A DNA stretch of 64,000 nucleotides, taken from Candidatus Melainabacteria bacterium. Its GTDB lineage: Bacteria; Cyanobacteriota; Vampirovibrionia; 2-02-FULL-35-15. The notes beneath the pieces were generated by a model. It was not told where the DNA came from. It made no database searches and saw only the letters and a list, made by a program, of their open reading frames with translations. Where the stretch lies: contig JAHFBG010000006.1 of assembly GCA_023250155.1 (NCBI GenBank), positions 78,963 through 142,962 on the forward strand, given 5' to 3'. This document shows positions 16,695 through 33,191 of this stretch, piece after piece (position 1 is the stretch's first letter; the number at the start of each line of letters is the position of its first letter). A program made the translations under genes and the position numbers.

Positions 16695-16735
16695 TAATCA
16701 TCATTTTTGTTACTTCCTTATATGTTTGATTAAGC

Positions 16736-16811
16736 CCCGTAGGTATGGGTCGCTTATTTCTTACTAAAATCTTCAAGTAATATAAACAAAATAAGTAATG
16801 CTAAAATATAG
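16736..16811 (+). repeat. Cassette left repeat L1 (paralog of 21298-21376)
   Basis: CCCGTAGGTATGGGTCGCTTATTTCTTACTAAAATCTTCAAGTAATATAAACAAAATAAGTAATGCTAAAATATAG aligns with L2 with few mismatches. Contains an extended -10-like TGCTAAAAT about 25 nt before the DinD ATG. The first 16 nt are inverted at 18018-18033. Confidence 0.8.
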
Positions 16812-16831: not shown

Positions 16832-17680
16832 ATGAAAAAAGAAATTATAACAAAATTACATAAAAGTTTTGAAGAGGCTGCATACCAAGAAGATGGAGTT
16901 GAATATTGGCTTGCTAGGGAACTTCAAACTCTTCTTGAATATACAGAATGGCGTAATTTTCTTCAGGTGATAGATAAAGCTAAAGTAACGTGTAAAACCT
17001 CTGGTCAAGAGGTTGGGCATCATTTTGTTGACATCAACAAAATGATAACTTTAGCAAAAGGGGCCTCTAGAGATATTGATGACCTCATGCTGACTAGGTA
17101 TGCATGTTATTTAATAGCTCAAAATGGTGACCCTAGAAAAGAACAGATTGCATTTGCACAAAGTTATTTTGCTATTCAAACACGTAAACAAGAAATATTA
17201 GAAAAAAGAATTGAGTTGATTGAAAGGTTAGAAGCAAGGGAAAAGCTTACTGCTACTGAGACAGAATTGTCTGGAACGATTTATGAAAGAGGAGTAGATA
17301 GTAAAGGTTTTGGAAGAATAAGAAGCAAAGGAGACCAAGCTTTATTTGGTGGTAATAACACTTTGCAAATGAAAAAGAAATTAGGTATTCCTGAAAGTAG
17401 ATCGCTTGCAGATTTTTTACCTACAATTACTATAAAAGCAAAAGATTTAGCTACAGAGATTACAAATTTTAATGTAAAAAAAGCCGATCTAAAAGGTGAG
17501 CAAAAAATAACAGATGAACATGTGAAAAATAATCAGGATGTGAGAACCTTATTAGAAAAAAATAACATACTGCCAGAGACTTTACCACCAGAACAAGATA
17601 TAAAAAAATTAGAACGTGCTGTTAAAGCTGATGATAAAAAACTGTTAGAGGATATTAAAAAGTTGAAAAGAGATAAGTAA
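16832..17680 (+). CDS. dinD: DNA damage-inducible protein D
   Basis: WLARELQTLLEYTEWRNF, RYACYLIAQNGDPRK and AQSYFAIQTRKQE closely parallel E. coli DinD (SRYACYLVVQNGDPAKP...GQTYFAIQTRRQE). Confidence 0.85.
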   Translation: MKKEIITKLHKSFEEAAYQEDGVEYWLARELQTLLEYTEWRNFLQVIDKAKVTCKTSGQEVGHHFVDINKMITLAKGASRDIDDLMLTRYACYLIAQNGDPRKEQIAFAQSYFAIQTRKQEILEKRIELIERLEAREKLTATETELSGTIYERGVDSKGFGRIRSKGDQALFGGNNTLQMKKKLGIPESRSLADFLPTITIKAKDLATEITNFNVKKADLKGEQKITDEHVKNNQDVRTLLEKNNILPETLPPEQDIKKLERAVKADDKKLLEDIKKLKRDK

Positions 17681-17951: not shown

Positions 17952-18033
17952 AGAACTAACCTGGAGCGGAAAAAACAAGAATAGGATAAAGTAAAATGCT
18001 ATGTAGGTTTGGGTTATGACCGATACCTACGGG
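17952..18033 (+). repeat. Cassette right repeat R1 (paralog of 22536-22615) ending in the inverted terminal repeat
   Basis: AGAACTAACCTGGAGCGGAAAAAACAAGAATAGGATAAAGTAAAATGCTATGTAGGTTTGGGTT matches R2 with three substitutions and one indel. GACCGATACCTACGGG (18018-18033) is the reverse complement of 16736-16751 with one mismatch. Confidence 0.8.
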
Positions 18034-18714: not shown

Positions 18715-19233
18715 TTATTTTGTACCATTCCTCAAATCCTTAACTTTATTCCAAAATCCTTTTTTGTTTTGCCTTGCTTCTTTCTCATATTTAATAAAAT
18801 CCTCAGAGTACTTAAATGGATATTTGGTATAAGCATGGCTATAACCTTGTTTAACGAGCTCAGCGTTGAATAATTTGTCTTCTAACAAATGTACATAAGC
18901 CAATGTTCGTCCGTAATAGTCTATTCTTTTATTGTCGTATTCTAGGCAGACCTCTTTCCCGATTAACGTACTTTTAGTAAATTCAGTAGCTTCTTTGCCA
19001 AAGTATTCTTTTGGCTTTTTGGGATGTTTAGTTTCAGGAGTATTAACACCTATTAATCTGATGTGTTGTTCTACCACTATAGTGTCACCATCAATAATCT
19101 TTATAACCTTCCTTGAATCCTCTGAATATTTATCATTTTTAGATTTTGGACATTGAAACTTTGCGGCGACACTTAGTTGTGTCGTTAAGCATAAAACAAT
19201 ATAGAAAAGAATAGGTAATTTATTTTTGTTCAT
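18715..19233 (-). CDS. Secreted thermonuclease (staphylococcal nuclease, SNase family)
   Basis: Signal peptide, then IDGDTIVV, IRLIGVNTPETKHPKKP, YFGKEATEF, DYYGRTLAYV and AELVKQGYSHAY, the typical SNase catalytic and core motifs. Confidence 0.85.
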   Translation of the reverse strand: MNKNKLPILFYIVLCLTTQLSVAAKFQCPKSKNDKYSEDSRKVIKIIDGDTIVVEQHIRLIGVNTPETKHPKKPKEYFGKEATEFTKSTLIGKEVCLEYDNKRIDYYGRTLAYVHLLEDKLFNAELVKQGYSHAYTKYPFKYSEDFIKYEKEARQNKKGFWNKVKDLRNGTK

Positions 19234-19265
19234 AATTAAAACTTCTTGAATTTGTTGCTTATGTT

Positions 19266-19322
19266 GCTGTAGGGTATCACTCTACGAGTTAGATTATAAG
19301 CTGAACGGTACCACCCTACAGC
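19266..19322. repeat. Perfect 10-bp inverted repeat pair (GCTGTAGGGT / ACCCTACAGC) with 37-bp spacer, related to cassette termini
   Basis: The arms are exact reverse complements. The TGTAGGGTAT motif resembles the TGTAGGTATGGG cassette ends at 16738 and 21299. Confidence 0.7.
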
Positions 19323-19362
19323 TATTTATAAAGCCATTTATTGTAAAGCATGAGGTTTATAA

Positions 19363-19584
19363 ATGGCTAGATGGCATACAAGATTAAAAAAGGCACGAGA
19401 AGCAATTGGATTATCATTAGCTGGTGCTGTCAAGCTATTGTATGAAAGTGAGAAAATCAAAATTCACAGAACTTTTTTAGGTCAAGTAGAACGTGGTGAA
19501 TCTGATTTAACAACCAGTAAATTTAGAGGTTTATGTAAAATTTATTGTGCAGATTCAAATTGGGTTTTGGACTTGAAGGAATAA
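19363..19584 (+). CDS. XRE-family helix-turn-helix protein (module copy A)
   Basis: RLKKAREAIGLSLAGAVKLL...FLGQVERGESDLT is a Cro/CI-type HTH pattern. Paralog at 26984-27232 shares the C-terminal LC.IYC...NWVLD.KE. Confidence 0.7.
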   Translation: MARWHTRLKKAREAIGLSLAGAVKLLYESEKIKIHRTFLGQVERGESDLTTSKFRGLCKIYCADSNWVLDLKE

Positions 19585-19586
19585 AT

Positions 19587-19979
19587 TTAGTACTTCGTTT
19601 CTTCCAACCCCTGCATCCCCATATCCTGAATTAAATAAAACAAATTATCTTCAAAGTAATCTTGAGTTGGTGTACCGATTTGACTGATGATTTTATTAAA
19701 ATCTAAGTTCTCTGGAATCGATCCATTTTGAATGATTGGTATAACTAGCTTTTTAAGTGATTCTGCAGGGAGACTTCCTTTTCCATAGACCTTGTCTCCC
19801 CAAGGTAGACCTTCTGATTCATTGATAGCATTTATTAAATGAGTCTTTTCTTCTGGCTTGAGATTTTTCAAGAAGTCATTTAATGATTTTGTTTGTAGTC
19901 CTTCTATACCTGATTTAACTGGTCTTGGAATAGGCTTTCCAACTACTAAGAATCCAACGTGCCTTACAAATATAGTCAT
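19587..19979 (-). CDS. Hypothetical 130-aa protein (module copy A)
   Basis: SD AAGGAG 6 nt upstream. Paralog at 28830-29219 is nearly identical except for the last ~14 aa. No recognised motif. Confidence 0.65.
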   Translation of the reverse strand: MTIFVRHVGFLVVGKPIPRPVKSGIEGLQTKSLNDFLKNLKPEEKTHLINAINESEGLPWGDKVYGKGSLPAESLKKLVIPIIQNGSIPENLDFNKIISQIGTPTQDYFEDNLFYLIQDMGMQGLEETKY

Positions 19980-19994
19980 GTGTTTCTCCTTAAA

Positions 19995-20186
19995 TTACAT
20001 GGGGGTATGGTTTTGTAAGGTGTACTCTAAAAGCTCTAGCTCCTCTTTACGTACATCATCATTGTTTTGTAATGACTGTAGCTCATCACCCTCATAATAT
20101 TTTTCTAAATCTTTCACTTTTTTGAGGGCACTAATTCTTTCCTTGATTTCATTGAAAAGCTTAGGGTTCATTCCATTAATTCTCAT
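19995..20186 (-). CDS. Hypothetical 63-aa acidic/helical protein (module copy A)
   Basis: Precedes the 130-aa gene by 15 nt. Paralog at 29235-29426 has the same length and conserved ends (MRI.GM...HTPM / YTPM) but many substitutions. Confidence 0.55.
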   Translation of the reverse strand: MRINGMNPKLFNEIKERISALKKVKDLEKYYEGDELQSLQNNDDVRKEELELLEYTLQNHTPM

Positions 20187-20268
20187 AACTTTATCACCTA
20201 CTTTATCTCTGATTAGTTTAAAGCAGTTAATCTTGTATTTCTCAATTTTGTAAATGATCTTTTACACT
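20177..20268. promoter_or_regulatory. Divergent promoter/leader region, 92 bp identical to 29417-29508
   Basis: Block-by-block comparison shows no mismatch across 92 bp, while the flanking coding sequence differs at many positions. Lies between the divergently transcribed 63-aa and ~315-aa genes. Confidence 0.6.
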
Positions 20269-20291
20269 TGTTTTCTGGGAATAGCATTGAT

Positions 20292-21236
20292 ATGAGTGCT
20301 ATTACTAATGCTGGTTTTAAATGGGGTGAAAATCTATCATGGGCTAAAGCTAATGTTTTTCACGGAAGAAACTCATTAGTATATGGTTTATCTGCTACTA
20401 CTCTTGGATGTATTAAGACACTTATTAATGAAGATTCCTTTTCTTACAAAACCTTAGATTTGTTTCAGTCTACTTTTTTAGGACTAAGAAGTAATCAGCA
20501 GTACAGCATCTACTCAAGAAAAAAAGATGATGATTTAGGTTTTGATGAAGTACATAGGCCACATGCTGCAAACATAGGAGAGTTAGCATGTTTTATAGAA
20601 AAGAAAATAAATCCTATAGCATTACCCTTAACTACTGCTTTAGGAAATGAAGTAAAAGAAAGCTATCATTTAATAGCTCACTTAGCTAATGCTTTATGGT
20701 GGAGGAGCAGGTTATTCTCACAGAAAATCAGTTGGAAATTATTTAAACATATTCCTAGACTTTTTCAACAACTAATAAATTCAACAAATAAGAATCTTGT
20801 AACTAATCAAATCAGTGAGATTGTTTCTCCATCATTAGGTCTCATAGGTTTTGCTTTTTGTGGCTTATTCACACCTATAAAATCTTGGCTTAAATTTAAA
20901 GGGACGGAAAATAAAATCATTGATTCATTAGCATCAGTAGGTACTGCTACTCAGCATTTGATTTATTTTTTTAAATTTACCCTACCTCAGATATTTCATT
21001 TTCAAGAGAATAACAAATATGAACACAAAAAATTATTTAACATGGGTATTTGTGCAAATGCTTTAAATATTGGATTGCCCATAATTGATCTTTTGTCTTT
21101 TGAAAATGGTTTTTTAAATAAAGCACAAAGATTATATAAAGAACTAGCGTCTGGATTTACTATGGCATTTTTCTCTAGTAGAAGGTATTTTATGGGAAAG
21201 GCATGGGTGGATGGGAATAATAATCCTTCATTATGA
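20292..21236 (+). CDS. Hypothetical ~315-aa protein with several hydrophobic segments (module copy A)
   Basis: ATG at 20292 aligns with the ATG of the paralog (29532). The two share long identical stretches (NAGFKWGENLSWAKANVFHGRNSL..., TENKIIDSLASVGTATQHLIYFFKFTLPQIFHFQEN...). No known motif. Confidence 0.65.
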   Translation: MSAITNAGFKWGENLSWAKANVFHGRNSLVYGLSATTLGCIKTLINEDSFSYKTLDLFQSTFLGLRSNQQYSIYSRKKDDDLGFDEVHRPHAANIGELACFIEKKINPIALPLTTALGNEVKESYHLIAHLANALWWRSRLFSQKISWKLFKHIPRLFQQLINSTNKNLVTNQISEIVSPSLGLIGFAFCGLFTPIKSWLKFKGTENKIIDSLASVGTATQHLIYFFKFTLPQIFHFQENNKYEHKKLFNMGICANALNIGLPIIDLLSFENGFLNKAQRLYKELASGFTMAFFSSRRYFMGKAWVDGNNNPSL

Positions 21237-21297
21237 ATTTTCTTTGATGAGGTGGTTTTAAATGCACCAATTAATTCTGATAATGATTTGATTTTGC

Positions 21298-21376
21298 CTT
21301 GTAGGTATGGGTCGCCTATTTTCTTACTACAATCTTTAAGTAATATAAACAAAATAAAAGTAATGCTAAAATGTAG
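21298..21376 (+). repeat. Cassette left repeat L2
   Basis: CTTGTAGGTATGGGTCGCCTATTTTCTTACTACAATCTTTAAGTAATATAAACAAAATAAAAGTAATGCTAAAATGTAG aligns with L1. TGCTAAAAT lies upstream of the YhcG-like gene. Confidence 0.8.
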
Positions 21377-21409
21377 ACTAGTGTAGAGAATAAGCGGACT
21401 ACTTAATCA

Positions 21410-22453
21410 ATGAATGATTTAATGAAAGCAAATGAATACTATAATCTACTGACTGAGATTAAATCTAAGATTCGTCAAGCACAGCTTAAAGCTACTCTAG
21501 CTGTTAATCAGGAATTGATTTTGCTTTATTGGCAAATGGGTAATTCTATTCTTATCCAAGAACAGCAAGGAGGGTGGGGGTCTAAAGTTATAGACCACTT
21601 AGCTAAAGACCTTAAAGCTGAATTCCCTGAAATGAAGGGGTTCTCAATACGAAACCTAAAGTATATGAGGACTTTTGCTAAACATTATAAGGATTTAAAC
21701 TTTGTGCAACAAGCTGTTGCACAAATTCCATGGGGGCATAATTGCATTATTTTGGATAAAATTAAAGATGACAAAGAGAGAGAATTTTATATCAATGAAA
21801 CTGTCAAGAATGGCTGGTCTCGGAATGTAATGGTTCACCAAATTGAGAGTAATCTCTATCAAAGGCAAATTCAATCTGATAAAACTCATAATTTTAAAAC
21901 TACGCTAACTAAACCTCAATCTGATTTGGCACATGAAATACTCAAAGATCCATATAATTTTGATTTTCTTAGCCTTGGGCAAGAAGCTAAAGAAAAAGAT
22001 CTTGAAAACGCTTTAGTAGAGCACATTACAAAATTTTTACTAGAGTTAGGAGCTGGTTTTGCTTTCATCGGAAGGCAATATCATTTGGAAGTAGATAATC
22101 AAGATTTTTATATCGATTTGCTTTTTTATCATACTCGCTTACATGCTTATGTTGTTATTGAACTTAAGCTTGATGATTTCAAGCCAGAGTATGCAGGTAA
22201 ACTAAATTTCTATCTATCTGTAATTGACAAAACATTAAGAAACAATAATGATAAACCTTCTATCGGCATTATTCTCTGTAAAAACAAAAATAAAATCGTT
22301 GCAGAATATTCTTTGCAAGATATGACTAAGCCAATAGGGGTTTCTGAATATCAGCTCACAGAAGCAATTCCTGAAGATCTTAAATCCAGCTTACCAAGTA
22401 TAGAAGAGCTGGAGAATGAACTTGCTAGTTATCAAGAAATTGGAGGAAAATGA
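21410..22453 (+). CDS. YhcG-family PD-(D/E)xK nuclease (DUF1016)
   Basis: The N-terminus (IRQAQLKATLAVNQELILLYWQMG, GGWGSKVIDHLAKDLKAEFPEMKGFSIRNLKYMRTFA) and the C-terminal core (FYIDLLFYHTRLHAYVVIELKLDDFKPEYAGKLNFYL) are typical of DUF1016/YhcG. Confidence 0.85.
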   Translation: MNDLMKANEYYNLLTEIKSKIRQAQLKATLAVNQELILLYWQMGNSILIQEQQGGWGSKVIDHLAKDLKAEFPEMKGFSIRNLKYMRTFAKHYKDLNFVQQAVAQIPWGHNCIILDKIKDDKEREFYINETVKNGWSRNVMVHQIESNLYQRQIQSDKTHNFKTTLTKPQSDLAHEILKDPYNFDFLSLGQEAKEKDLENALVEHITKFLLELGAGFAFIGRQYHLEVDNQDFYIDLLFYHTRLHAYVVIELKLDDFKPEYAGKLNFYLSVIDKTLRNNNDKPSIGIILCKNKNKIVAEYSLQDMTKPIGVSEYQLTEAIPEDLKSSLPSIEELENELASYQEIGGK

Positions 22454-22461
22454 TAAAAATA

Positions 22462-22520
22462 GCTGGTTTCGACAGGCTCAACCAGCCAGTGATGCCTGAG
22501 CTAGTCGAAGGCACCACTGA
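22462..22520. repeat. GC-richer double hairpin (REP-like family 2 copy)
   Basis: GCTGGTT-TCGACAGGCTC-AACCAGC and AGTGATGCC-TGAGCTAGTCGAA-GGCACCACT stems. The first loop matches the loop of the 3475-3562 element. Confidence 0.6.
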
Positions 22521-22535
22521 TAAAAATAAAAACTT

Positions 22536-22615
22536 AGAACTAACCTGGATCGGAAAAACAAGAATAGGATAAAGTGAAATGCTATGTGGGTTTGGGTTGT
22601 AGGATGTCTAGGGGA
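22536..22615 (+). repeat. Cassette right repeat R2 with degenerate terminal motif
   Basis: Matches R1 over about 63 bp. The following GTAGGATGTCTAGGGG only loosely resembles the R1 terminal GACCGATACCTACGGG. Confidence 0.7.
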
Positions 22616-22884
22616 TAATCTTTAAAAAAGAACAGAGAGAGATGCTTCTGCTTGTTTTTGATTAGTGTTCCACTGGGTGGATTTTGGGATTTAAGTACTT
22701 TTAGAAGACTGAAAGATGATGGTAAGTATTCTGAGCTGATTTAAATTAGAACCCTAATATATGTTGAATGAAAAAAATACTGTGAATATAAAAACATACA
22801 AGATCAAATTCATATCCTATTTGCTAAACTCATAGTTGCTAATAACTCTAAAATCATTTTACTGTATAGTAAAGGTAATCTAAA

Positions 22885-23820
22885 TTGAAAAATATAATTA
22901 ATAGGAAGATTACTGAATCAGAAACAATATTGCCTGGGATGGCTTGTTGGTTGTGCTCTTTAAAAGAGCTTAAAGTTATTAAGAATTCAAGTCTAACAAA
23001 AAAAGACTTAAGTAGTAAGCTGTTTGCAATTACAGATAGTGCTTACGGTAAGACTCTAGAGGTATATCGTTGTATGGGTTGTGGATTTATGCAGTGTTCT
23101 AGTGTAGATGAAGTTCTAGGATACTATGAAACGCTCCAAGATGAAGAATATGAAAACACAAGAAAACCACGGAGCCTTCAAATGAAAAAAGTATTAGAAA
23201 TTATAAAAAAATATAAGAATGGTGGTAGATTGTTAGATGTTGGTGCAGGAAATGGCATTCTAGTTGAGCAAGCAATAACTATGGGTTACGATGCTGAGGG
23301 GATAGAACCTTCGACTTGGTTAGTAAAGAAAGCTCACGATAGAAAATTACCAATATATGAAGGAACCTTAAATAGTCTTAAGCCAAAAGAATTATATGAT
23401 GTTGTCACTATTATAGATGTAATCGAACATGTCACAAATCCTCTTGATTTACTTTCCAGTGTTTATAATCTAATTGCAAAGGATGGGATTATAGTTATAG
23501 TTACTCCAGATGTAGGTTCTCTTGTGGCAAAACTACTTAGTTGGAAGTGGTGGCATTACAGGGTTGCACATGTTGGATACTTCAATAAGAATACATTGAA
23601 TTATGCTCTTGACAAGACCAACCTCAAGTCAATTAAAATGCTTAATCCGAGTTGGTATTTTACAGGTGAATATGTGGCAGAGAGAATAAACAAATATCTT
23701 CCTAGTTTTATGCACATAACTTTGCCTATTTACTTTAGAAACAAGATTATCTCAATTAATGTAGGAGATTCAATTTTAGGAATTTATGCACCAAAGACCC
23801 CTAAGAATAACGAACACTAA
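22885..23820 (+). CDS. Class I SAM-dependent methyltransferase with N-terminal Cys4 zinc-ribbon-like motif
   Basis: Motif I LLDVGAGNGILVEQA. CWLCS...CMGCGF at the N-terminus. The track start is TTG at 22885; ATG at 22939 is the alternative. Confidence 0.75.
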   Translation: MKNIINRKITESETILPGMACWLCSLKELKVIKNSSLTKKDLSSKLFAITDSAYGKTLEVYRCMGCGFMQCSSVDEVLGYYETLQDEEYENTRKPRSLQMKKVLEIIKKYKNGGRLLDVGAGNGILVEQAITMGYDAEGIEPSTWLVKKAHDRKLPIYEGTLNSLKPKELYDVVTIIDVIEHVTNPLDLLSSVYNLIAKDGIIVIVTPDVGSLVAKLLSWKWWHYRVAHVGYFNKNTLNYALDKTNLKSIKMLNPSWYFTGEYVAERINKYLPSFMHITLPIYFRNKIISINVGDSILGIYAPKTPKNNEH

Positions 23821-23830
23821 GAATTATATT

Positions 23831-25843
23831 TCAATCAAGATAATCAAGCTCTTCCAACTTACTTTTTACCTTCTCATTAGAAGGATTTATAAATGAGAGG
23901 ATAATGTTTAATGATTTTTTTGCATCTTCATACATTCTGTTTTTAATAAAAACATTAGTAGTTAAAAGATATAAATTTTCATTTGCAGTAGAAGGAATTT
24001 TATCATTAGAAATTGCTTGCTTAAAATACTCTAAAGCAATTTCTGTATTATTGATTTCTTGATAAAACAATCCAGCAAAAAGATATGGGTATGATGATAT
24101 TGGTTTTATCTTAATGTAATTCTTTATTAGTTCTGATGCTTCATTCAGACTGTCTGACTTTATTGCAACTTCAATAAATAGCCTATCGTATATAAAAGTA
24201 AAGCTAGGATTAGATCTTACTGCATTTTGTAGAGACTGCCAGGCTCTCTTCCACTCTTTAATTTCCTTGAACAGAGTTGCATTTTGAATCCAGGCAAACG
24301 CATCATTTTTAACTTCTATAGCTTGTTTCATTAAGTAATCAAGTTCATCTTGTTTATTGCTAGTAATAAGACATCTAGAAATAAATCTGTAAGTATTGTA
24401 TTTGTAGGCATTTTGCATTGGTCCAAACTTGTAGGAAAGATCTGGTTTTACGTATAAGTATTTTTTTAACCATTGGGCTACTTCTCTTTTTAGTTCATCT
24501 AAATTCATACATTTGGGTAATTCATCCTGCCTGCCTTTAGATTTTGCTGTTTGTATAGCTTCAAGAGTGTACATAACTTTAGTCCATGGTGGGGAATATT
24601 TAGCCATAGAAATTGCTTGTGAAAGACGATCTTTTTGTGTGGGTATGTATAGAATGGTTCTCCAAGCTAACAAACAAAATATTGATAATACTATTATTAG
24701 TAAAGTCCTTGTTGAAATAGTTTTCCAACAATAAGTAAACAAACTAAAAATAGATAGAAGAATACCTAATATAGATAAATAGCACCAATGCTCATCTACT
24801 ATGTCAAATAATGGAATGATTTGAATCACCAATATCATTGAAGTTAGAAACCATACAATTCCTATACTATAAAAAGGAATTTTTTTATACAAATATATTC
24901 CACTTAATATCAGCACTAAAGCTAATCCTTGACAAAATAATGTATATGGACTGAGAAGTGTCCCCCCTACCATATACCAATCTGTTTGTGTCTCTGCCAG
25001 ATAATCTGGATAGAAAAATAATCTGAAGTAATGTACTAATAACTGTGGTGCTAACCAATAGGCTCTGAATAAAATATCTTTAGTGGTACCTATTTCAGTC
25101 CATGTAATTAACGAGTCTCCAGTATAGAATAGTGATGAACCACAAGCAAAGAACTTCCATGTTAAATAAATTGGATAAATTAATATTATGGGTAGTACAA
25201 AATTAATTAAGTAGTCTCTTTGAAAAAATCTCTGCTTTCCATCAAGAAAGAAAAAAATTAAAAGAAGTACTAAAGGAAAAGGAAGATATTGCTCATGAGA
25301 TGTAATTGAAGCAAAAAAGAACAGAATTCCAACCAGGGAACTAAACAATCTGAGGACATAGTTTTTAATTTCCCTTGCTTTTAGAAAACACCAAATAAAA
25401 GTCAAGCAAAAAGTACCCGATGCCAATTGAGCTGGAGCACATCCTACTCTTGTTAATATTTCCACGTTTAGTGGATGAACTGTCCACAAAGAAATAATCA
25501 GAACAGAGATTAACTTGCTATTTGTTAGCTTGTGCATAATTAGTGTAGCAATTACACAACTAATTGAATGCATAATTAGTGCATATAAATGAAAACCAGA
25601 AGGGAATGCTTGATTGCCCAAGAAATAATGAACTAGATATGATTGAAAGTAACAAAATGGTACAAAGTGTAATCCCGGAAGATTTCTATAAAATCCTTGT
25701 AACATAATGCTGAAATTCTTAGCCATTGGTACAGTAATATATGTGTCATCTCCCCATGCAGCATCAAAAAAAACAGACTGAGAATAAAGCAGAAGATAGA
25801 TTATGGTTGGTACTAAAAAGTATATTTTTCTTATGAATTTCAT
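23831..25843 (-). CDS. GT-C-fold membrane glycosyltransferase-like protein with C-terminal TPR repeats (TMTC/DUF1736-like)
   Basis: About 10 hydrophobic helices. The first-loop AAWGDDTYIT resembles the DD motif of PMT/TMTC-type GT-C enzymes. The C-terminal ~250 aa are TPR-like. Confidence 0.6.
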   Translation of the reverse strand: MKFIRKIYFLVPTIIYLLLYSQSVFFDAAWGDDTYITVPMAKNFSIMLQGFYRNLPGLHFVPFCYFQSYLVHYFLGNQAFPSGFHLYALIMHSISCVIATLIMHKLTNSKLISVLIISLWTVHPLNVEILTRVGCAPAQLASGTFCLTFIWCFLKAREIKNYVLRLFSSLVGILFFFASITSHEQYLPFPLVLLLIFFFLDGKQRFFQRDYLINFVLPIILIYPIYLTWKFFACGSSLFYTGDSLITWTEIGTTKDILFRAYWLAPQLLVHYFRLFFYPDYLAETQTDWYMVGGTLLSPYTLFCQGLALVLILSGIYLYKKIPFYSIGIVWFLTSMILVIQIIPLFDIVDEHWCYLSILGILLSIFSLFTYCWKTISTRTLLIIVLSIFCLLAWRTILYIPTQKDRLSQAISMAKYSPPWTKVMYTLEAIQTAKSKGRQDELPKCMNLDELKREVAQWLKKYLYVKPDLSYKFGPMQNAYKYNTYRFISRCLITSNKQDELDYLMKQAIEVKNDAFAWIQNATLFKEIKEWKRAWQSLQNAVRSNPSFTFIYDRLFIEVAIKSDSLNEASELIKNYIKIKPISSYPYLFAGLFYQEINNTEIALEYFKQAISNDKIPSTANENLYLLTTNVFIKNRMYEDAKKSLNIILSFINPSNEKVKSKLEELDYLD

Positions 25844-25852
25844 ATATAGTAT

Positions 25853-26791
25853 TTAACTTGATTGTGTACTTAAAAAAGCATTTTTTAAAAACCAATTAAG
25901 TAAAGGAAGATTAAATTTAAGGAGAAATATTACAAGTAGCGATAAGAAAATAACATATAGGGTGAATGATTTTTGCCCAAATAGTTTTTCAGGATTCTGT
26001 GCAATTGAGTTTTTTTGGAAACCCAAACTCAAGTACCAAGTAAACAGCAAAGCAAAGCAGGGTAGACTTAATAGAAGCTCTACACGGTATTTAACAAGAA
26101 ATACTCCAATAAAAAATGCTGAAGTTAAAGCATAAAAGAAAGCAGAAATTAATAGCTTATCTTCAGTGTAGTCATTAAAAGATTTTCTGTATAAGGTAGC
26201 AGTTTGTTGATTATCAAAAGATCGGTATTCCGCAAACCGTTTAATGGCCATAAGAAATGCACCACCCATCCAATAGCCTAGAACTAGGCTAGAAGGAGGA
26301 AATGGGTTGTTTATTACTGAAAACCAGCCAAGATATAACCTTATTGGATTATTTATTGCTTCAGAGAGAACATCAAGATAAACCACTTCTTTTAAACGCA
26401 ATGGCTTTGCGTTATAAACAATACCCATAATTAATAAGATAATGGATGTAACTAGAAAGTTCTGTGAGATCCTCCATGCTATAGCTAAGCCAAGTGTAAC
26501 TAATAAAATGTACTCAAGAAAAACAAACTTAATTTTTAATTTACCTTGAGCTATTGGTCTTTGTTTCTTGAATGGATGATGAAAGTCGCATTTTGAATCC
26601 AGCCATTCATTAATTACATAATTTGCAGATGACAAAAGACAAGCACTTATCAGACTCAAGGCAATATTCGTCAGGCAATCAGTAATTGGAGTATTTGATA
26701 ATGATACAGCAATTAAAATCCCAGGTAACATAAAAGCATTTTTAAACCAGTGTGTAGGTCTAGCAATGGAAACATATTCTTTTAAGTTCAT
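25853..26791 (-). CDS. UbiA-family prenyltransferase, decaprenyl-phosphate phosphoribosyltransferase-like
   Basis: NYVINEWLDSKCDFHHPFKKQRPIAQG parallels the N..D...D..HP.K..RPIA.G motif of DPPR synthases. Polytopic membrane protein. Confidence 0.7.
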   Translation of the reverse strand: MNLKEYVSIARPTHWFKNAFMLPGILIAVSLSNTPITDCLTNIALSLISACLLSSANYVINEWLDSKCDFHHPFKKQRPIAQGKLKIKFVFLEYILLVTLGLAIAWRISQNFLVTSIILLIMGIVYNAKPLRLKEVVYLDVLSEAINNPIRLYLGWFSVINNPFPPSSLVLGYWMGGAFLMAIKRFAEYRSFDNQQTATLYRKSFNDYTEDKLLISAFFYALTSAFFIGVFLVKYRVELLLSLPCFALLFTWYLSLGFQKNSIAQNPEKLFGQKSFTLYVIFLSLLVIFLLKFNLPLLNWFLKNAFLSTQSS

Positions 26792-26983
26792 ATTTTTAAG
26801 TTGCTTGCTTCTACTGGTAGAAAATAAATAAAAAGAGAAATAAAAGAATACTCAAAATCTTTTTAATTTCTTTATCTTTATTCGGATTAGTTTCCTTCTT
26901 AAAACCGTAGAATCGGTGTGTTATTCGACGAGATGTTTCGTTTAACGAAACGATCATAGCTTAAGCCCTATATCTTTACAAGT

Positions 26984-27232
26984 ATGAAGGTAGTTAAACC
27001 TAAAAAAAGTAATGACAGTTGGAATAAAAGACTTAAAATTGCCAGGGAAGAAATGGAGTTGTCTTTAACTGGAGCCTTGAAACTTTTATATGAAACTCAT
27101 AAGATACGCTGGAGTAAATCTCAACTATCAAAAGTTGAAATGGGGATATCAAACTGTGATGTATATAAATTTAAAGCTTTATGTGATATTTACTGTGTAG
27201 AACCAAATTGGGTCTTAGATTGGAAGGAGTAA
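26984..27232 (+). CDS. XRE-family helix-turn-helix protein (module copy B)
   Basis: Paralog of 19363-19584 (RLKIAREEMELSLTGALKLLYE...LCDIYCVEPNWVLDWKE). Confidence 0.7.
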   Translation: MKVVKPKKSNDSWNKRLKIAREEMELSLTGALKLLYETHKIRWSKSQLSKVEMGISNCDVYKFKALCDIYCVEPNWVLDWKE

Positions 27233-27249
27233 CAGATCAGATATTTTAT

Positions 27250-27303
27250 TTCCCATCCAACCCCCACATCCCCATTTCCGGAATCAAATAAAACAAATTA
27301 TTT
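27250..27303 (-). pseudogene. Relic of the 3-prime end of a 130-aa-family gene
   Basis: TTCCCATCCAACCCCCACATCCCCATTTCCGGAATCAAATAAAACAAATTAT aligns with 19597-19650, the 3-prime end of the copy A 130-aa gene, directly after the HTH stop as in copy A. Confidence 0.65.
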
Positions 27304-27373
27304 TTAAACTCTTATAGTTTGTTGGTTCTTAGAATTTGGTTTCCTAAGTACCAACCCTTTGGTAGCTAAACAG

Positions 27374-28789
27374 CTACTTCTTTATCTCCCACCATCCACC
27401 CTTATCAGGCCCAATTCTCTTTAGTAATTCTTTTTGTTTTAGCTTTTGTATGTTTCGCTTAATGGTACGTTCATCTAGTTTTAAAGTTTCAGATAACTTA
27501 CTTATAGTAATCTTTGTGTTTCTCTTTATTGCAAGATAAATTTTCAACTCAGAAGAATCCTGTTTTAGAAGATTTTCTGGGGCATTTTCTGGGGCATTTT
27601 CTGGGGCATTCTTTGATCTGTAAAACACAGTAGAAAATCCTGATTTGAGAACTTTAAACTCAACCTTTACATTATTTTCTTTACACTCATCATATATTCT
27701 CTTTAAGCCTGAACCCCATTTTTCAATATCCTTACTAAGATAAAGATTTATAGCAATAAGAGGATTTCTTAAAACTGATTGCTCTTCTCCCTTAATAAAA
27801 TCCTGGGGTGACAATCCTTCAGGGAACTTGCCAGGGTTAAATATATCAACTCTATCTTTAAATATAGCTATTTGATTCCCTTCCCCTCTCCAATAATCTC
27901 TATGACAAAGTGAGTTTACTAAAGCTTCTCTGAGTGCATCAATTGGAATTTCTGGGATTTCTACACGCTTAAAATCCTTAAACTCTACTCTCCAATTAAT
28001 ATGTTCTTTAACATATAACTCTGATTGTTCAAGTAAATCAAAAAGATTACCTTTTAACAGCTTTATATCAAGAAAATTTCCTTTATCAGTACCTGAAAAA
28101 ATTGCAAGTTGTACTTCAAGAGGGTTTTCATTACAAAATAAAACCTCTCCTGCCTTCAAAAGTTTCCTATCTTTTATTAAATCTAATTTCTTTAGTGTTG
28201 TTGTAACGTCTTTAAATTTATAATCTATCCTTTTTGCTAAGTTAGCTCTTTTTATATATTCTCGAAGAACTTTAGAATTGACTTTGCTTATTGGTTTATC
28301 TGAGTATTTATTATCCCAGCGTAGCTCATCCTTATTCTTTTTTATAAACATACTTTCTAACTCTTTTGCACTTAGTTGCCTGTTTTCATCTCCAACTCTT
28401 ATGTATGCCCTACCATATACAAAGTAAGGAATATTATTTCCTTCAAACTCAACTTGAAGACAACTTTTCTTATTAGTTTCTATCTTTGCAACTTTTGGAT
28501 AAATCTTTGGTTCAATGTGTTCTGCAATTGATCTTGAAACTTCTCTTATAGTATTTTGTGTAACATCTTGACCTATCACTTCACCATTATCTTTCATTCC
28601 AAAATAAACATCACCTTTTTTATGTTTATTAAGAATTGAGGCTATTGAAATAACTGCCTCTTTTAATTCAGAAGTTGATTTTTTTAATTCTATAGTTTCC
28701 GATTCTTTTAAATAGGTCTTCATGCTATTAATTTTAACGTAAATCATATCTTGATTTTCAGTATACGTTAGCTGTTTATCCTGGTTCAA
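27374..28789 (-). CDS. Schlafen/AlbA_2-domain protein with HATPase_c_4-like region and C-terminal wHTH (RecG-like putative regulator/sensor)
   Basis: ESETIELKKS...VISIASILNKHKKGDVYFGMKDNGEVIGQDV fits the AlbA_2 pattern. ALREALVNSLCHRDY is typical of this family. The C-terminus is basic and HTH-like. Confidence 0.7.
   Translation of the reverse strand: MNQDKQLTYTENQDMIYVKINSMKTYLKESETIELKKSTSELKEAVISIASILNKHKKGDVYFGMKDNGEVIGQDVTQNTIREVSRSIAEHIEPKIYPKVAKIETNKKSCLQVEFEGNNIPYFVYGRAYIRVGDENRQLSAKELESMFIKKNKDELRWDNKYSDKPISKVNSKVLREYIKRANLAKRIDYKFKDVTTTLKKLDLIKDRKLLKAGEVLFCNENPLEVQLAIFSGTDKGNFLDIKLLKGNLFDLLEQSELYVKEHINWRVEFKDFKRVEIPEIPIDALREALVNSLCHRDYWRGEGNQIAIFKDRVDIFNPGKFPEGLSPQDFIKGEEQSVLRNPLIAINLYLSKDIEKWGSGLKRIYDECKENNVKVEFKVLKSGFSTVFYRSKNAPENAPENAPENLLKQDSSELKIYLAIKRNTKITISKLSETLKLDERTIKRNIQKLKQKELLKRIGPDKGGWWEIKK
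27573..27608. repeat. Perfect 12-bp x3 tandem repeat inside the AlbA_2 gene (encodes NAPE x3)
   Basis: TTTTCTGGGGCA is repeated three times head to tail. In frame. Confidence 0.9.
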
Positions 28790-28829
28790 ATCTAATGAGT
28801 TACATGATGGTATGCTACAACAGCTTACT

Positions 28830-29219
28830 TCACGACTTCCTATCCAACTCTCGCACTCCCAGCTCTTGAATTAAATAAAACAAATTATCTTCAAAATAAT
28901 CTTGGGTGGGTGTACCGATCTGATTGATGATTTTATTAAAGTCTAAGTTTTCTGGAATTAATCCATTTTGAATGATTGGTATAACTAGCTTTTTAAGAGA
29001 TTCTGCAGGGAGACTTCCTTTTCCATAGACCTTATCTCCCCAAGGTAAACCTTCTGATTCATTAATTGCATTTATTAAGTGAGTCTTTTCTTCTGATTTG
29101 AGATTTTTTAAGAAGTCATTTAATGATTTTGTTTGTAGTCCTTCTATACCTGATTTAACTGGTCTTGAAATAGGCTTTCCAACCATTAATAACCCAACGT
29201 GCCTTACATATATAGTCAT
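28830..29219 (-). CDS. Hypothetical 129-aa protein (module copy B)
   Basis: Paralog of 19587-19979, with the same SD and a different C-terminal tail (ELGVRELDRKS). Confidence 0.65.
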   Translation of the reverse strand: MTIYVRHVGLLMVGKPISRPVKSGIEGLQTKSLNDFLKNLKSEEKTHLINAINESEGLPWGDKVYGKGSLPAESLKKLVIPIIQNGLIPENLDFNKIINQIGTPTQDYFEDNLFYLIQELGVRELDRKS

Positions 29220-29234
29220 GTGTTTCTCCTTAAA

Positions 29235-29426
29235 TTACATGGGGGTGTAACTGTCTCTGCTCTCCTCACATTCAGCAAGCTCTTTTAGTCTAAGCTCGTC
29301 ATTATTTTGTAGGGCTTCTAATTCTTTATCTTCGTAAAACCTTTCTAATCCTTTGTTAGCTCTAAGAGCCTCAATCCTTTTAGCAATTAATTCTGCAAGT
29401 CCAGGATCCATTCCAGTAATTCTCAT
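29235..29426 (-). CDS. Hypothetical 63-aa protein (module copy B)
   Basis: Paralog of 19995-20186, with the same length and synteny. Confidence 0.55.
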   Translation of the reverse strand: MRITGMDPGLAELIAKRIEALRANKGLERFYEDKELEALQNNDELRLKELAECEESRDSYTPM

Positions 29427-29508
29427 AACTTTATCACCTACTTTATCTCTGATTAGTTTAAAGCAGTTAATCTTGTATTTCTCAATTTTGTAAATGATCT
29501 TTTACACT
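29417..29508. promoter_or_regulatory. Divergent promoter/leader region, identical to 20177-20268
   Basis: See 20177-20268. Confidence 0.6.
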
Positions 29509-29531
29509 AATCTTCTGGGCATAGTACTAGT

Positions 29532-30473
29532 ATGAATGCTATTACTAATGCTGGCTTTAAGTGGGGTGAAAATCTCTCCTGGGCTAAAGCTAATGTTTTT
29601 CATGGGAGAAACTCATTAATATATGGTTTATCTGCTACTACTCTTGGATGTATTAAGACACTTATCCATGAAGATTCATTTTCTTATAAAGCCTTAGATT
29701 TACTTCAATCTACCTTTTTAGGTCTAAGAAGTAACCAGCAGTACAACATCTACTCAAGAAAAAAAGATGATGATTTAGGTTTTGATGAAGTACATAGGCC
29801 ACATGCTGCAAACATAGGGGAGCTAGCATGTTTTATAGAAAAGAAAATAAATCCTATAGCATTACCTTTAACTGCTGCTTTAGGAAATGAAGTAAAAGAA
29901 AGCGATCATTCAATAGTACATTTGGCTAATGCATTGTGGTGGAGAAGCAGGCTTTTTTCAACTAAAATCAAGTTGTCGAGATTGCAATATATTAAAGATG
30001 ATTTAGTTAAGCTATGCAGAGCAAACTTAGAGGTTAAAAAGTTATCAGCATCACATTTAGAAAGTATTATTTCACCATTATTAGGTCTTATTGGCTTTGT
30101 TTCATGTGGCTTATTCACACCTATAAAATCATGGCTTAGATTTAAAGGAACTGAAAATAAAATCATTGATTCATTAGCATCAGTAGGTACTGCTACTCAG
30201 CATTTGATTTATTTTTTTAAATTTACTTTGCCTCAGATATTTCATTTTCAAGAGAATAAGAAATATGAACACAAAAAATTATTTAATCTGGGTATTTGTG
30301 CAAATGCTTTAAATATTGGATTGCCCATAATTGATCTTTTGTCTTTTGAAAATAGTTTTTTAAATAAGGCACAAAGATTATATAAAGAACTAGCGTCAGG
30401 ATTTACTATGGCATTTTTTTCTAGTAGAAGGTATTTTATAGGAAAGGCATGGGTGGATGGGAATAGGTTGTAA
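29532..30473 (+). CDS. Hypothetical 313-aa protein with hydrophobic segments (module copy B)
   Basis: Paralog of 20292-21236, with a replaced central segment (aa 143-179). Confidence 0.65.
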   Translation: MNAITNAGFKWGENLSWAKANVFHGRNSLIYGLSATTLGCIKTLIHEDSFSYKALDLLQSTFLGLRSNQQYNIYSRKKDDDLGFDEVHRPHAANIGELACFIEKKINPIALPLTAALGNEVKESDHSIVHLANALWWRSRLFSTKIKLSRLQYIKDDLVKLCRANLEVKKLSASHLESIISPLLGLIGFVSCGLFTPIKSWLRFKGTENKIIDSLASVGTATQHLIYFFKFTLPQIFHFQENKKYEHKKLFNLGICANALNIGLPIIDLLSFENSFLNKAQRLYKELASGFTMAFFSSRRYFIGKAWVDGNRL

Positions 30474-30500
30474 AATGTTGTGCAAATGTGATACCAATAT

Positions 30501-30545
30501 TGTCATTGCGAACCCTGAATGAAATGAAGGGTGAAGCAATCTCAC
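30501..30545 (+). repeat. CATTGCGA...GCAATCTCAC element, left flank of the GIY-YIG gene
   Basis: TGTCATTGCGAACCCTGAATGAAATGAAGGGTGAAGCAATCTCAC. Its ends are inverted at 30898-30929. Confidence 0.8.
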
Positions 30546-30573
30546 GATTGATCAAACGAGAATGAGGCCACCT

Positions 30574-30867
30574 CTATTTTAGTGTTAGATATAAATCCTT
30601 CATGTCTTTGTTCATTGATTCAATAAGCTCAAGCTTTTTTTTCCTTGAACCTGCTTTTATTTGTTTTTCTCTAGCTATTGCTAAATTGATGTCTCTAAAA
30701 GTTTCATAGTAAAGAAGATCTTTAACGTTATATCTAGAAGTAAAGCCTTTTGTTGAATTGTTTCGGTGTTCATAAATCCTTCTTGTTAGGTCATTTGTAA
30801 CACCTGTATAAAGGACTGTTCTAGACTTGTTTGAAATTATATAAATAAAATAACGATATTCTTCCAT
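30574..30867 (-). CDS. GIY-YIG nuclease family protein (URI domain, COG2827-like)
   Basis: YFIYIISNKSRTVLYTGVTNDLTRRIYEH, YNVKDLLYYE and AIAREKQIK match the GIY...YTG...R...H...E pattern. Confidence 0.85.
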   Translation of the reverse strand: MEEYRYFIYIISNKSRTVLYTGVTNDLTRRIYEHRNNSTKGFTSRYNVKDLLYYETFRDINLAIAREKQIKAGSRKKKLELIESMNKDMKDLYLTLK

Positions 30868-30897
30868 GGGTTTTTGATATTATGCGGTTTATGCTAT

Positions 30898-30929
30898 GTG
30901 AGATTGCTTCGCTTATGCTCGCAATGACA
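30898..30929 (-). repeat. CATTGCGA...GCAATCTCAC element, right flank of the GIY-YIG gene (inverted)
   Basis: GTGAGATTGCTTCGCTTATGCTCGCAATGACA. Its reverse complement is TGTCATTGCGAGCATAAGCGAAGCAATCTCAC. Confidence 0.8.
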
Positions 30930-30955
30930 AAGAATTAAGTAAAACACAATATCCA

Positions 30956-31168
30956 CTAAGTCCAATTTATTACCCATTTTATTTTCAAATCTTTATTTGC
31001 AAATGAAGTTAATGAAGCATCAGAAACAAATCCAATTTCTGAACCATTTTCATTGTAAATTTTTGCTCTAATTGAATAACCATCATAATCTTTCAAAGTC
31101 AAATTATTCTGTAAGCAATATTCTTTTATTTTCTCGATAGTTTCAAATCCTAAACACCCATTAAACAT
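30956..31168 (-). CDS. Hypothetical 70-aa protein (candidate immunity-like partner of the upstream 672-aa protein)
   Basis: Starts 4 nt after the stop of the 672-aa gene, on the same strand. No signal peptide and no motif. Confidence 0.5.
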   Translation of the reverse strand: MFNGCLGFETIEKIKEYCLQNNLTLKDYDGYSIRAKIYNENGSEIGFVSDASLTSFANKDLKIKWVINWT

Positions 31169-31172
31169 TTAT

Positions 31173-33191
31173 TTATAACCTTCCTTCTGACTTTAATTTT
31201 AGCAATAGTGTATTTATTTCTTCAGGACTGGACGGATGTAATGACTTTAATAATAAATTGTTGATTTCGCTTTCTGTTAATTTTAATACCCCGATCACTT
31301 TAGTTGTAGCATTTACATTGCTAAGTAATGATGTAGATGGTATTGATATAGCACTATCTACGCTTATACTTTCATATCCACCACCACTAGTGATTCCGCC
31401 TACTACAAAGCTTGGATTAATTATTGCATTATTCTTAGAAGGAAGTTCAATTTTAAGATTAGCTGTGTCAAATTCTGTTATTATCAATATTTCACCTTGT
31501 AATCTTTCAATATCACTAATAGTATCTAACCCTAATTTTTTTAAGAGATTTAGTCCTATTAGATCTTTTATTTGTTCAGCATCTGTTAAGAATGTTATGC
31601 CATCTCTGTTTGACAATGGACGAATACCACTCTTTACGTCATCAATTTTAGATTGCAAATCCACCCTTGCCCCCCTCTCAGGCACATAACTTGGTTTTCC
31701 AGTAACTAGGTTTTTACTTACTCTTATGACTTCACTACTCAATCTTTCTTCTTCTACATTTTCTACAAAAACAAACAATAAATCATTTAATTCTGTGTCA
31801 TTTAATGGAATTGTTAGATTATCCCTGTTTATGATTTTTAAGAATGAATCATGAGACTCACCGATTAAGCTTCCTAACCTATCTACTATTTTTGTAGTAT
31901 CTAATTGTCTGGTTTCTAGCCTTTTTGCTAATTCATTTAAAACACTTTTTGCTTCATTTGTTAGTTTTGTGATTAGAACTGAAAAGTTATATAAACCTAT
32001 CTTTTTATGTGTTTGTAGTCCTTCATCTTTTGTTGTGGCTATTTTGTCTAGTGCACTATAGAGTAGTTTTGATAAGTCATTAAGGTTTTGAGTTTTTAAT
32101 TCTTCTATTTGCTTGATGGTTTGTGTGTATTCGTCGAGTGCTAATACAGTAGTGTTTTTTGATGCCCATGCTATTACACCTGATAGTCCAATGAGTTTTG
32201 TGACTTCTCCGAATATATAACCTGCTTTAAATAAACTACTTTCATGTGAATATGATAATAATTGGGTTTTAATAGTGTCAGCTTGTATGGCTATACTGCT
32301 TGCACTAAACTCAGTAAGAATAATGGGTAGAAGTGGATCTACTGTAGTGCTTATAGTAGTTATTGCTCCTGCACCTATGATGAAGGTAAATACTGCACTA
32401 GCTAAGATTGGATTTTCTTTTATTGAATTAAGTAGTTCTTGATTTGATGTTTCTAACCCACGGAGAAAATCATTTAAATCTAAAACAAGCTTTAAATCTT
32501 CTTTACTTGGCTTAAACTCTGTATATGAACAGCTTCCTTGTAATGTGGTTTGATATTTAAGTCTTAAGTATTTTTCTTTGTTTAGACAAGAATCTTTAAT
32601 TAATTTTGCAAGATCTTCATTGAGCTGTGTTGTATAAGTGTTTTCATTTTTGTTTGTGAGATATCCGAAAGTAGAAAGTACGTTTTTAATCTCTCGAATT
32701 GTAATTCTTCTTCCATCTAGGTCAATATTTTCAATATCGAGTAGAGTGGTTTCTTCTTCTGTGTCTTCTTTATTACTATGATCTACCACATATGTTTTTC
32801 TTATTGCATATACTGCTTTTGGATCTGTTAATAAGTCTGTGTTTTCAACAGGTGTTTCCTTTAGTCTTTCCTGTATTATTTTTAACCAGTTGGGATTTCT
32901 TTTTACTATTAGTTCAAAAGTATCTGCTTCTTTTGGAATGCAGTTATTGTAAGAGATGGTTTTAGTTAGTTGTTTTGGGCTTGTGAAATTCACTTCATCA
33001 GGAAATGTACAAGTAGGATTGATCGTTCCTTTGTCTGGAACAATATCTACAAGTAGTCCTGAACCAGCTTTAAGGAGAGTATTTGTAGATAAGGTTACTT
33101 CAAAATCAAAATAATCATCAGATGAAGCAAAAGCTAATATTGGATTCACCGACAATAAAACAATAAATAAAATTGTAATTATTTTTCTCAT
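31173..33191 (-). CDS. Large secreted hypothetical protein (672 aa) with central hydrophobic helices
   Basis: Signal peptide IITILFIVLLSVNPILAFA. Hydrophobic segments ILASAVFTFIIGAGAITTI and LIGLSGVIAWA. The C-terminal ~180 aa contain VVGGITSGGGYE. No confident family. Confidence 0.6.
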   Translation of the reverse strand: MRKIITILFIVLLSVNPILAFASSDDYFDFEVTLSTNTLLKAGSGLLVDIVPDKGTINPTCTFPDEVNFTSPKQLTKTISYNNCIPKEADTFELIVKRNPNWLKIIQERLKETPVENTDLLTDPKAVYAIRKTYVVDHSNKEDTEEETTLLDIENIDLDGRRITIREIKNVLSTFGYLTNKNENTYTTQLNEDLAKLIKDSCLNKEKYLRLKYQTTLQGSCSYTEFKPSKEDLKLVLDLNDFLRGLETSNQELLNSIKENPILASAVFTFIIGAGAITTISTTVDPLLPIILTEFSASSIAIQADTIKTQLLSYSHESSLFKAGYIFGEVTKLIGLSGVIAWASKNTTVLALDEYTQTIKQIEELKTQNLNDLSKLLYSALDKIATTKDEGLQTHKKIGLYNFSVLITKLTNEAKSVLNELAKRLETRQLDTTKIVDRLGSLIGESHDSFLKIINRDNLTIPLNDTELNDLLFVFVENVEEERLSSEVIRVSKNLVTGKPSYVPERGARVDLQSKIDDVKSGIRPLSNRDGITFLTDAEQIKDLIGLNLLKKLGLDTISDIERLQGEILIITEFDTANLKIELPSKNNAIINPSFVVGGITSGGGYESISVDSAISIPSTSLLSNVNATTKVIGVLKLTESEINNLLLKSLHPSSPEEINTLLLKLKSEGRL

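Follow-up and report, generated by a model that had tools for sequence, protein, structure and literature searches.

We found that a 64,000-nucleotide stretch of DNA from a Candidatus Melainabacteria bacterium (contig JAHFBG010000006.1, positions 78,963 to 142,962 of the forward strand; hereafter the window) harbours two copies of a two-gene cassette that the comparison of gene neighborhoods shows to be conserved. In this cassette, a gene for a small acidic protein (p63) and a gene for a large basic protein of about 310 amino acids (aa) are transcribed divergently from a common intergenic region. An initial annotation had described four genes as one module; the other two, a helix-turn-helix (HTH) gene and a 130-aa reading frame (p130), are local additions to the window cassettes. 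Identity between the paralogues of the two copies, A and B, is about 95% and breaks down at two places with sharp edges: one patch takes up the p63 body, the other a helical hairpin in the large protein. The simplest account would be an old duplication that was later homogenized by gene conversion, with the exception of these two patches. That the two proteins form a cognate binding pair, whose paralogues have been homogenized outside their specificity patches, is a tentative reading, quite possible if short of probable, and the delimitation of the two-gene unit is much more secure than this mechanism.

The conserved unit

Fifteen independent loci were gathered, two of which are the window copies (winA and winB), and all of their open reading frames (ORFs) were clustered. 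The small divergent gene is the only one that accompanies the ~310-aa gene across the 15 loci. It encodes 60-90 aa, lies just upstream of the large gene in about 12 of the 15, and is a clear p63 homologue in both window copies and in loci L001, L003 and L011, with homology weakly detectable in L013, L009 and L014. In the clustering, neither the HTH gene nor p130 turned up in the 13 loci from other genomes, and among 5.8 billion proteins p130 recovered only itself and its own paralogue, which makes it an ORFan of this genome. The four-gene arrangement is therefore specific to this genome, and the proposed four-gene module was not upheld by co-occurrence. Two to three paralogues of the cassette are present per genome, in changing genomic positions. 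At L015 4163-4798, a homologue of the long form described below is accompanied by two small genes of 69 and 77 aa in tandem, whose C-terminal halves (…PTPTELFHRRSIAISDESRVDGDSSGE) are identical; the small partner has therefore been locally duplicated at this locus.

The two window copies comprise the following features (window coordinates, with the basis of each assignment in brackets).

Copy A
19363-19584, plus strand: HTH_A, a 73-aa XRE-like HTH protein (ORF listing)
19587-19979, minus strand: p130_A, 130 aa (ORF listing)
19995-20186, minus strand: p63_A, a small acidic helical protein with an isoelectric point (pI) of 5.1 (ORF listing, pI computation)
20187-20291: putative bidirectional control region (conservation, palindrome, repeats)
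20292-21236, plus strand: p314_A, the large basic protein, predicted to be all-alpha (ATG start by homologue alignment)

Copy B
26984-27232, plus strand: HTH_B, 82 aa (ORF listing, sub-threshold HTH matches)
27233-27308: 3'-terminal remnant of an older p130 copy, adjacent to HTH_B (BLASTN, tblastn, alignment)
27374-28789, minus strand: 471-aa AlbA_2/HATPase_c_4/winged-HTH gene (Pfam)
28830-29219, minus strand: p129_B, a paralogue of p130_A with 88% aa identity (ORF listing)
29235-29426, minus strand: p63_B, pI 4.7 (ORF listing, pI computation)
29427-29531: control region of copy B (palindrome at 29489-29506)
29532-30473, plus strand: p313_B, the large protein of copy B (ORF listing)

The ORF listing reproduced the four annotated reading frames of copy A (19363-21236), including the 15-nucleotide (nt) spacer between p63 and p130 (coding strand TTTAAGGAGAAACAC) with its AAGGAG Shine-Dalgarno (SD) sequence, and p130_A is probably co-transcribed downstream of p63_A. 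For the large gene of copy A, the mechanically called ORF starts with a TTG at 20268 (322 aa; plus strand, stop at 21236); alignment places the actual start at the ATG at 20292, where all homologues begin, and thus gives a protein of 314 aa. The same four genes recur in copy B (26984-30473), as had been noted before: positions 19603-21219 and 28843-30465 are 86% identical over 1636 nt (BLASTN, E = 0). In all four A/B gene pairs, the ratio of nonsynonymous to synonymous divergence (dN/dS) lies between 0.17 and 0.33 (0.21 for p130_A against p129_B), and all four genes therefore behave as protein-coding. The G+C content of the window is 32%.

Copy B differs in its layout, as the 471-aa AlbA_2/HATPase_c_4/winged-HTH gene, which is absent from copy A, sits between HTH_B and p129_B. 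This gene is an insertion and stands outside the cassette. Next to HTH_B, the remnant of ~75 nt shares 78% nt identity with 19587-19655 (tblastn: 18 aa at 67%), and the intact p129_B stands 1.5 kb away from it, past the AlbA_2 gene; copy B has therefore been rearranged, by insertion or by recombination, with partial duplication.

Mosaic divergence between the copies

A sliding-window nt comparison of A with B divides the cassette region into the following tracts (copy A coordinates unless stated otherwise).

19629-20002: p130 tract, 94% nt identity to copy B
20002-20174: divergent patch 1, p63 body, 55% nt identity to copy B
20174-20274: 5' end of p63 and intergenic region, 96% nt identity to copy B
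20298-20703: large gene before the hairpin (N-terminal half), nt identity 92-96%
20710-20859: divergent patch 2, helical hairpin at aa ~143-180 (46% over 20710-20831; 62% over 20843-20859)
20859-21213: large gene past the hairpin (C-terminal half), nt identity 96%
29242-29414 and 29950-30105 (copy B coordinates): the corresponding patches in the p63 body and the large-gene loop, from the same comparison

The copy-specific divergence reported in the initial annotation is thus real, with the correction that it is confined to two sharp patches and does not extend over the whole module. Between p63_A and p63_B, aa identity is 49% and synonymous divergence (dS) is saturated at ~2.3, compared with ~0.2-0.35 in the similar tracts. 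The hairpin of the large protein has a nonsynonymous divergence (dN) of ~1.0 and a dS of ~0.7, and its flanking halves have a dN/dS of ~0.1. Copy A is closer in its hairpin to locus L001 (49% identical) than to copy B (27%); outside the hairpin, the large proteins are 93% identical between A and B and 74% between A and L001. The hairpin loop is variable across the whole family, and the long forms of the large protein carry a conserved insertion of ~90 aa exactly at this site.

The low identity of HTH_A and HTH_B (52%, dS saturated) and the old p130 remnant beside HTH_B fit an old duplication. Both divergent patches lie within the genes of the conserved pair, which suggests that they could be surfaces of mutual recognition between the two proteins.

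A conserved intergenic control region

From one start codon to the other, the ~105-bp spacer is 92% identical between copies A and B, with an identical core of ~95 nt, and is still 83-88% identical to L001, L003 and L010, compared with 47-56% (saturated) at the fourfold degenerate sites of the adjacent gene. This intergenic region is thus under strong purifying selection. It holds the p63 SD sequence (AGGTGAT, minus strand), two ACTTTATC direct repeats and an 18-bp palindrome with the halves TGTAAATGA and TCTTTTACA (20249-20266 in copy A), which can be traced, in the form TGTRAA-N6-TTTACA, to distant loci without a neighbouring HTH gene. A regulatory RNA was considered and rejected: there is no Rfam match in 19000-31000, and the consensus RNA fold of the intergenic region (-1.8 kcal/mol, 0 compensatory pairs) reveals no conserved structure. 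On these grounds, we read the region as a likely compact bidirectional promoter with a putative operator.

Protein families and predicted structures

Neither p130, p63 nor the large protein matched any family in Pfam, NCBIfam, PADLOC (PADLOC-DB v2) or PHROGs, or any sequence in the PDB, whether single sequences or a 35-sequence profile were used, in agreement with the initial annotation, which could not place these proteins. A search with the defence models of PADLOC returned nothing for the three, and a literature search found nothing relevant to the cassette. The HTH genes had been called XRE-type, and the resemblance behind this call is weak: HTH_31 (20.2 and 17.1 bits against a cut-off of 27 bits; best E = 7e-4) and HTH_3 (17.5 bits against 23) were matched below threshold; the PADLOC matches to a "control protein" (E = 0.005) and to RmrA were weak (E >= 0.005), and a PHROG transcriptional-regulator family was matched by the HTH proteins, by HTH_B at E = 1e-5, which lends the call some support.

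The AlphaFold2 (AF2) model of p130 is poor, with a predicted local distance difference test score (pLDDT) of 58, and as a Foldseek query this poor model gave no informative fold match. A match of p130 to a 20-residue BLIP-II repeat (E = 0.05) is weak and was judged to be due to chance. The acidic p63 (pI 4.7-5.1) was considered as a ribbon-helix-helix or other DNA-binding protein, and this candidate was rejected, as no family match supports it.

The family of the large protein is rare. It comprises 11 clusters at 90% identity among 5.8 billion proteins and 86 representatives at 50% when 1.84 billion representatives were searched exhaustively with a profile, and its named sources are exclusively metagenome-assembled genomes of Candidatus Melainabacteria, to which the closest named relatives of the window, from groundwater, also belong. 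Among the 86 are the long forms of 470-600 aa, which possess an N-terminal extension of ~100 aa in addition to the insertion at the hairpin; a scan of these relatives for extra domains found none. IMG/VR viral contigs, GenBank phages (INPHARED) and PLSDB plasmids contained no relative of the large protein, and a phage or plasmid origin was rejected on this result.

Structure prediction was performed on the copy B paralogue. The AF2 model of p313_B, built from 11 aligned sequences, is confident (pLDDT 91.6, predicted template modelling score 0.88) and consists of twelve helices. Foldseek found nothing significant for it in the PDB (best E = 0.03, template modelling (TM) score <= 0.3), where GPCR-BRIL fusions and other generic bundles were the top matches, and nothing among the viral structures of BFVD. 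The structural check proposed at the outset thus provided one confident model and no match for it in these two collections; the predicted all-alpha fold of the large protein has no counterpart among PDB or viral structures.

The description of the large protein as membrane-like was partly substantiated. Two clearly hydrophobic 19-aa segments are present, at aa 178-196 and 253-271 and thus ~55 residues apart, and they are the only strongly hydrophobic ones (Kyte-Doolittle 19-mer mean >= 1.2). The protein as a whole has a grand average of hydropathicity (GRAVY) of about 0 (-0.04 to -0.09), a pI of 9.5 and a net charge of about +12. A classical multi-pass membrane protein would be expected to look different, and the large protein may rather be soluble or peripheral, a bundle whose hydrophobic helices are buried. 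Polar residues conserved throughout the family are W17, N21, R66, Q70, D80, E103, W137, R138, R140, Q223, Y227, R299 and R300. An invariant DDD motif, an Arg cluster, a C-terminal RRY and a nearby UbiA gene prompted us to consider a terpene-synthase/prenyltransferase-like enzyme, which was rejected on a Foldseek TM score of only ~0.2 to FPPS and on the missing NSE/DTE motif.

Genomic context

Both copies sit within an accessory region where nuclease and toxin-antitoxin (TA)-type genes abound, as had been described. The SNase, Bro-N (DinD-like), YhcG, AlbA_2 and GIY-YIG genes that had been named are present, AbiEii, PIN and DUF2779 genes are found as well, and so are methyltransferase and UbiA-type envelope genes. 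Elsewhere, the neighbours of the cassette are mixed and include polysaccharide biosynthesis, two-component systems, housekeeping genes and toxin-like giant proteins. Downstream of copy B are:

30956-31168, minus strand: p70, a small ORF after p672 (p672 and p70 together recall a polymorphic toxin and its immunity gene)
31173-33191, minus strand: p672, a large secreted protein with a signal peptide (relatives recur beside the cassette)

Proteins of the p672 family adjoin the cassette in 6 of the 15 loci, in two gene orders. These relatives have a hydrophobic central region in common and differ at their C-termini, each of which is followed by a different small ORF, so that the p672 locus resembles, by analogy, a polymorphic toxin with an immunity gene. 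The C-terminus of p672 itself matches Ntox10 below threshold (E = 0.043, 14 bits against a cut-off of 26.8 bits), and no toxin domain passes its threshold. When the conserved part of p672 was used to look for homologues with diverse toxin C-termini, orthologues alone were returned. The N-terminal and central part of p672 is also common to giant PKD-containing proteins of other Melainabacteria-type contigs (L003 1-4877, L007 301-5763, L017 1-4181).

Several further observations concern the surroundings of the cassettes. The Bro-N/DinD-like gene (16832-17680) and the YhcG gene (21410-22453) are unrelated nuclease-type genes with the same flanks, which are 85% identical over ~100 nt upstream (16710-16811 and 21271-21376) and 94% identical over ~64 nt downstream (17952-18015 and 22536-22598); it looks as if they were different cargo in one common cassette frame. 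Between the large gene of copy B and p70 (30474-30955) lies a 97-aa GIY-YIG gene (30574-30867), which is missing from the orthologous locus L001 and is flanked by inverted sequences of the CATTGCGA and TCGCAATGAC type, similar to some in the intergenic region of L018. This suggests that the GIY-YIG gene may be a small mobile element. At 7244-8968, the window encodes a 574-aa protein built from HEAT/PBS-lyase repeats in tandem; the DNA itself is internally repeated at 7400-8790. Gp37/Gp68-like and TcmP-like genes beside the cassette (L011 6134-7921) and a small TA-like pair near it (L005 1273-1775) were recognized by sequence reading alone.

Proposed mechanism and alternative explanations

In the mechanism that we propose, the small acidic protein would be the cognate partner of the large one, acting as its neutralizer, chaperone or regulator, and p63 would dock on the variable hairpin (aa ~143-180). 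Gene conversion would keep the paralogues alike elsewhere, and each pair would thereby retain its private specificity. The large protein may be an effector directed at membranes or polyanions, rather than a classical integral membrane protein; such a role fits better because the protein combines two hydrophobic helices of a buried type with an otherwise amphipathic bundle and a charge of +12. The conserved palindrome could serve as an operator that coordinates both genes, with the HTH proteins of this genome as candidate local regulators. Large secreted proteins with variable C-termini often adjoin the cassette, which suggests that it might act in the same setting of inter-cellular conflict or at the cell surface. 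In its widest form, this proposal describes an undescribed two-component conflict module of the Melainabacteria type, in which a helical effector of new fold would be gated by a private, co-evolving acidic partner on a hypervariable hairpin, selection against conversion would keep the paralogues orthogonal, and the module would work together with the giant secreted proteins; we consider this extended version doubtful. A role of the cassette in phage defence is a guess.

Several points weigh against the binding pair. Toxin-antidote pairs are not usually transcribed divergently. The small gene of L007 and those next to the long forms correspond to p63 in position only, with no detectable homology to it. 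Across nine loci, p63 divergence is not significantly correlated with loop divergence (rho 0.21) and instead follows how far the large protein has diverged as a whole (rho 0.46), so that a specific co-variation of p63 and loop across genomes was rejected as not significant with these nine loci. Among close relatives, p63 sequences are related in a star-like manner (38-49%), and the trans-specific signal therefore comes from the loop and not from p63. The patches could, moreover, be fast-evolving segments whose divergence itself blocks gene conversion. Finally, the six loci with a p672-type neighbour include orthologous ones and correspond to about two to three independent arrangements.

An alternative is that the large protein is an ordinary lineage-specific protein, for instance an envelope- or membrane-associated one, with a small co-regulated partner, and that the patches are fast-evolving, weakly constrained segments that escaped conversion and have no function in specificity or conflict. 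The loop is variable throughout the family and without a specific correlation with p63, the large protein is otherwise well conserved with invariant polar residues, and L001, L016, L017 and L018 lie among polysaccharide, lipopolysaccharide or housekeeping genes. However, two to three paralogues occur per genome, in shifting positions, both patches are confined to the two genes of the pair within 1.6 kb, and the extreme conservation of the control region implies a tightly coupled regulation. We regard this explanation as unlikely, while giving it real weight.

The pair might alternatively be an accessory to the giant secreted protein system, contributing to the delivery, maturation or regulation of the giant protein or to the protection of the producer, instead of forming an autonomous effector-partner module. 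The p672-type neighbours with their two gene orders, common hydrophobic centre, differing C-termini and small ORFs would agree with this, as would the Ntox10 hint and two ORFs of 158 aa and 146 aa that recur in L003 and L017. However, 9 of the 15 loci, window copy A among them, have no p672-type neighbour within the available flanks, the Ntox10 match falls well below its cut-off, and only orthologues were recovered as homologues of p672. An accessory role is thus rather improbable in our judgement. Very improbable is a single four-component phage-defence, exclusion or addiction system of HTH, p130, p63 and large protein: the four genes lie together in both copies, AbiEii, PIN, SNase, YhcG, AlbA_2 and GIY-YIG genes are found in the island, the HTH gene is weakly similar to controller-type regulators and the p130 remnant by HTH_B suggests that the HTH-p130 adjacency is ancestral to both copies, but HTH and p130 are absent from all 13 outside loci, p130 has no homologue elsewhere, an unrelated gene splits HTH_B from the rest of copy B, PADLOC matches none of p130, p63 and the large protein, and the family is absent from the viral and plasmid collections searched.

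If the binding-pair reading is true, the cassette would bring both a protein fold and an effector-partner pair that are new, in a sister lineage of Cyanobacteria that is uncultivated and little studied; new here means that no known family, fold or system was matched after testing. Paralogues that are homogenized except at their presumed interaction surfaces would then be a natural experiment that points to the specificity residues, and the conserved control region of ~100 bp provides a defined putative operator. Lineage-specific uncharacterized families are common in uncultivated phyla, and the paralogue mosaic offers a useful handle on this one. Even if the pair is ordinary, the unit of analysis has been corrected from four genes to two.

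Comparison with known systems

The HTH gene alone can be compared with XRE controller or Cro-like regulators, with which it shares its size of 73-82 aa, its weak similarity to HTH_31/HTH_3 and "control protein" models and its position at the border of a block of accessory genes. It differs from them in that its HTH scores stay below the curated thresholds, that it is unlinked to the cassette in other genomes, and that the palindrome is also kept where no HTH gene is adjacent.

Membrane-inserting helical bundles that bury their hydrophobic helices, such as pore-forming colicin domains and Bcl-2-like proteins, with their inhibitors, resemble the cassette in the predicted all-alpha bundle with only two strongly hydrophobic helices in an otherwise amphipathic and soluble-looking protein, and in the small putative partner. 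In contrast to these proteins, the hydrophobic helices of the large protein are ~55 residues apart and form no hairpin, and Foldseek finds no such structure (TM <= 0.3).

Polymorphic toxin/immunity loci are a class reportedly defined by comparative genomics by Zhang et al. in 2012. The cassette is reminiscent of them in its strain-variable genomic positions and in the large secreted proteins that adjoin it in 6 of the 15 loci, with their common trunk, variable C-termini and variable small downstream ORFs. Unlike polymorphic toxins, the large cassette protein keeps a conserved C-terminus and has no signal peptide and no known trafficking or toxin domain; the sub-threshold Ntox10 hint belongs to the neighbour p672, not to the cassette.

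Type II toxin-antitoxin systems differ from the cassette in several respects: p63 and the large gene are divergent, with no bicistronic operon in the window or in the related loci, neither protein matches a toxin or antitoxin family (Pfam, NCBIfam, PADLOC), the small protein has no recognizable DNA-binding domain, and the large one is a predicted 310-aa all-alpha bundle without a fold match. The resemblance lies in the pairing of a small acidic protein with a larger basic one, in the palindromic operator-like site within the promoter region, and in the occurrence of several paralogues per genome, each with private differences, in mobile or accessory gene surroundings.

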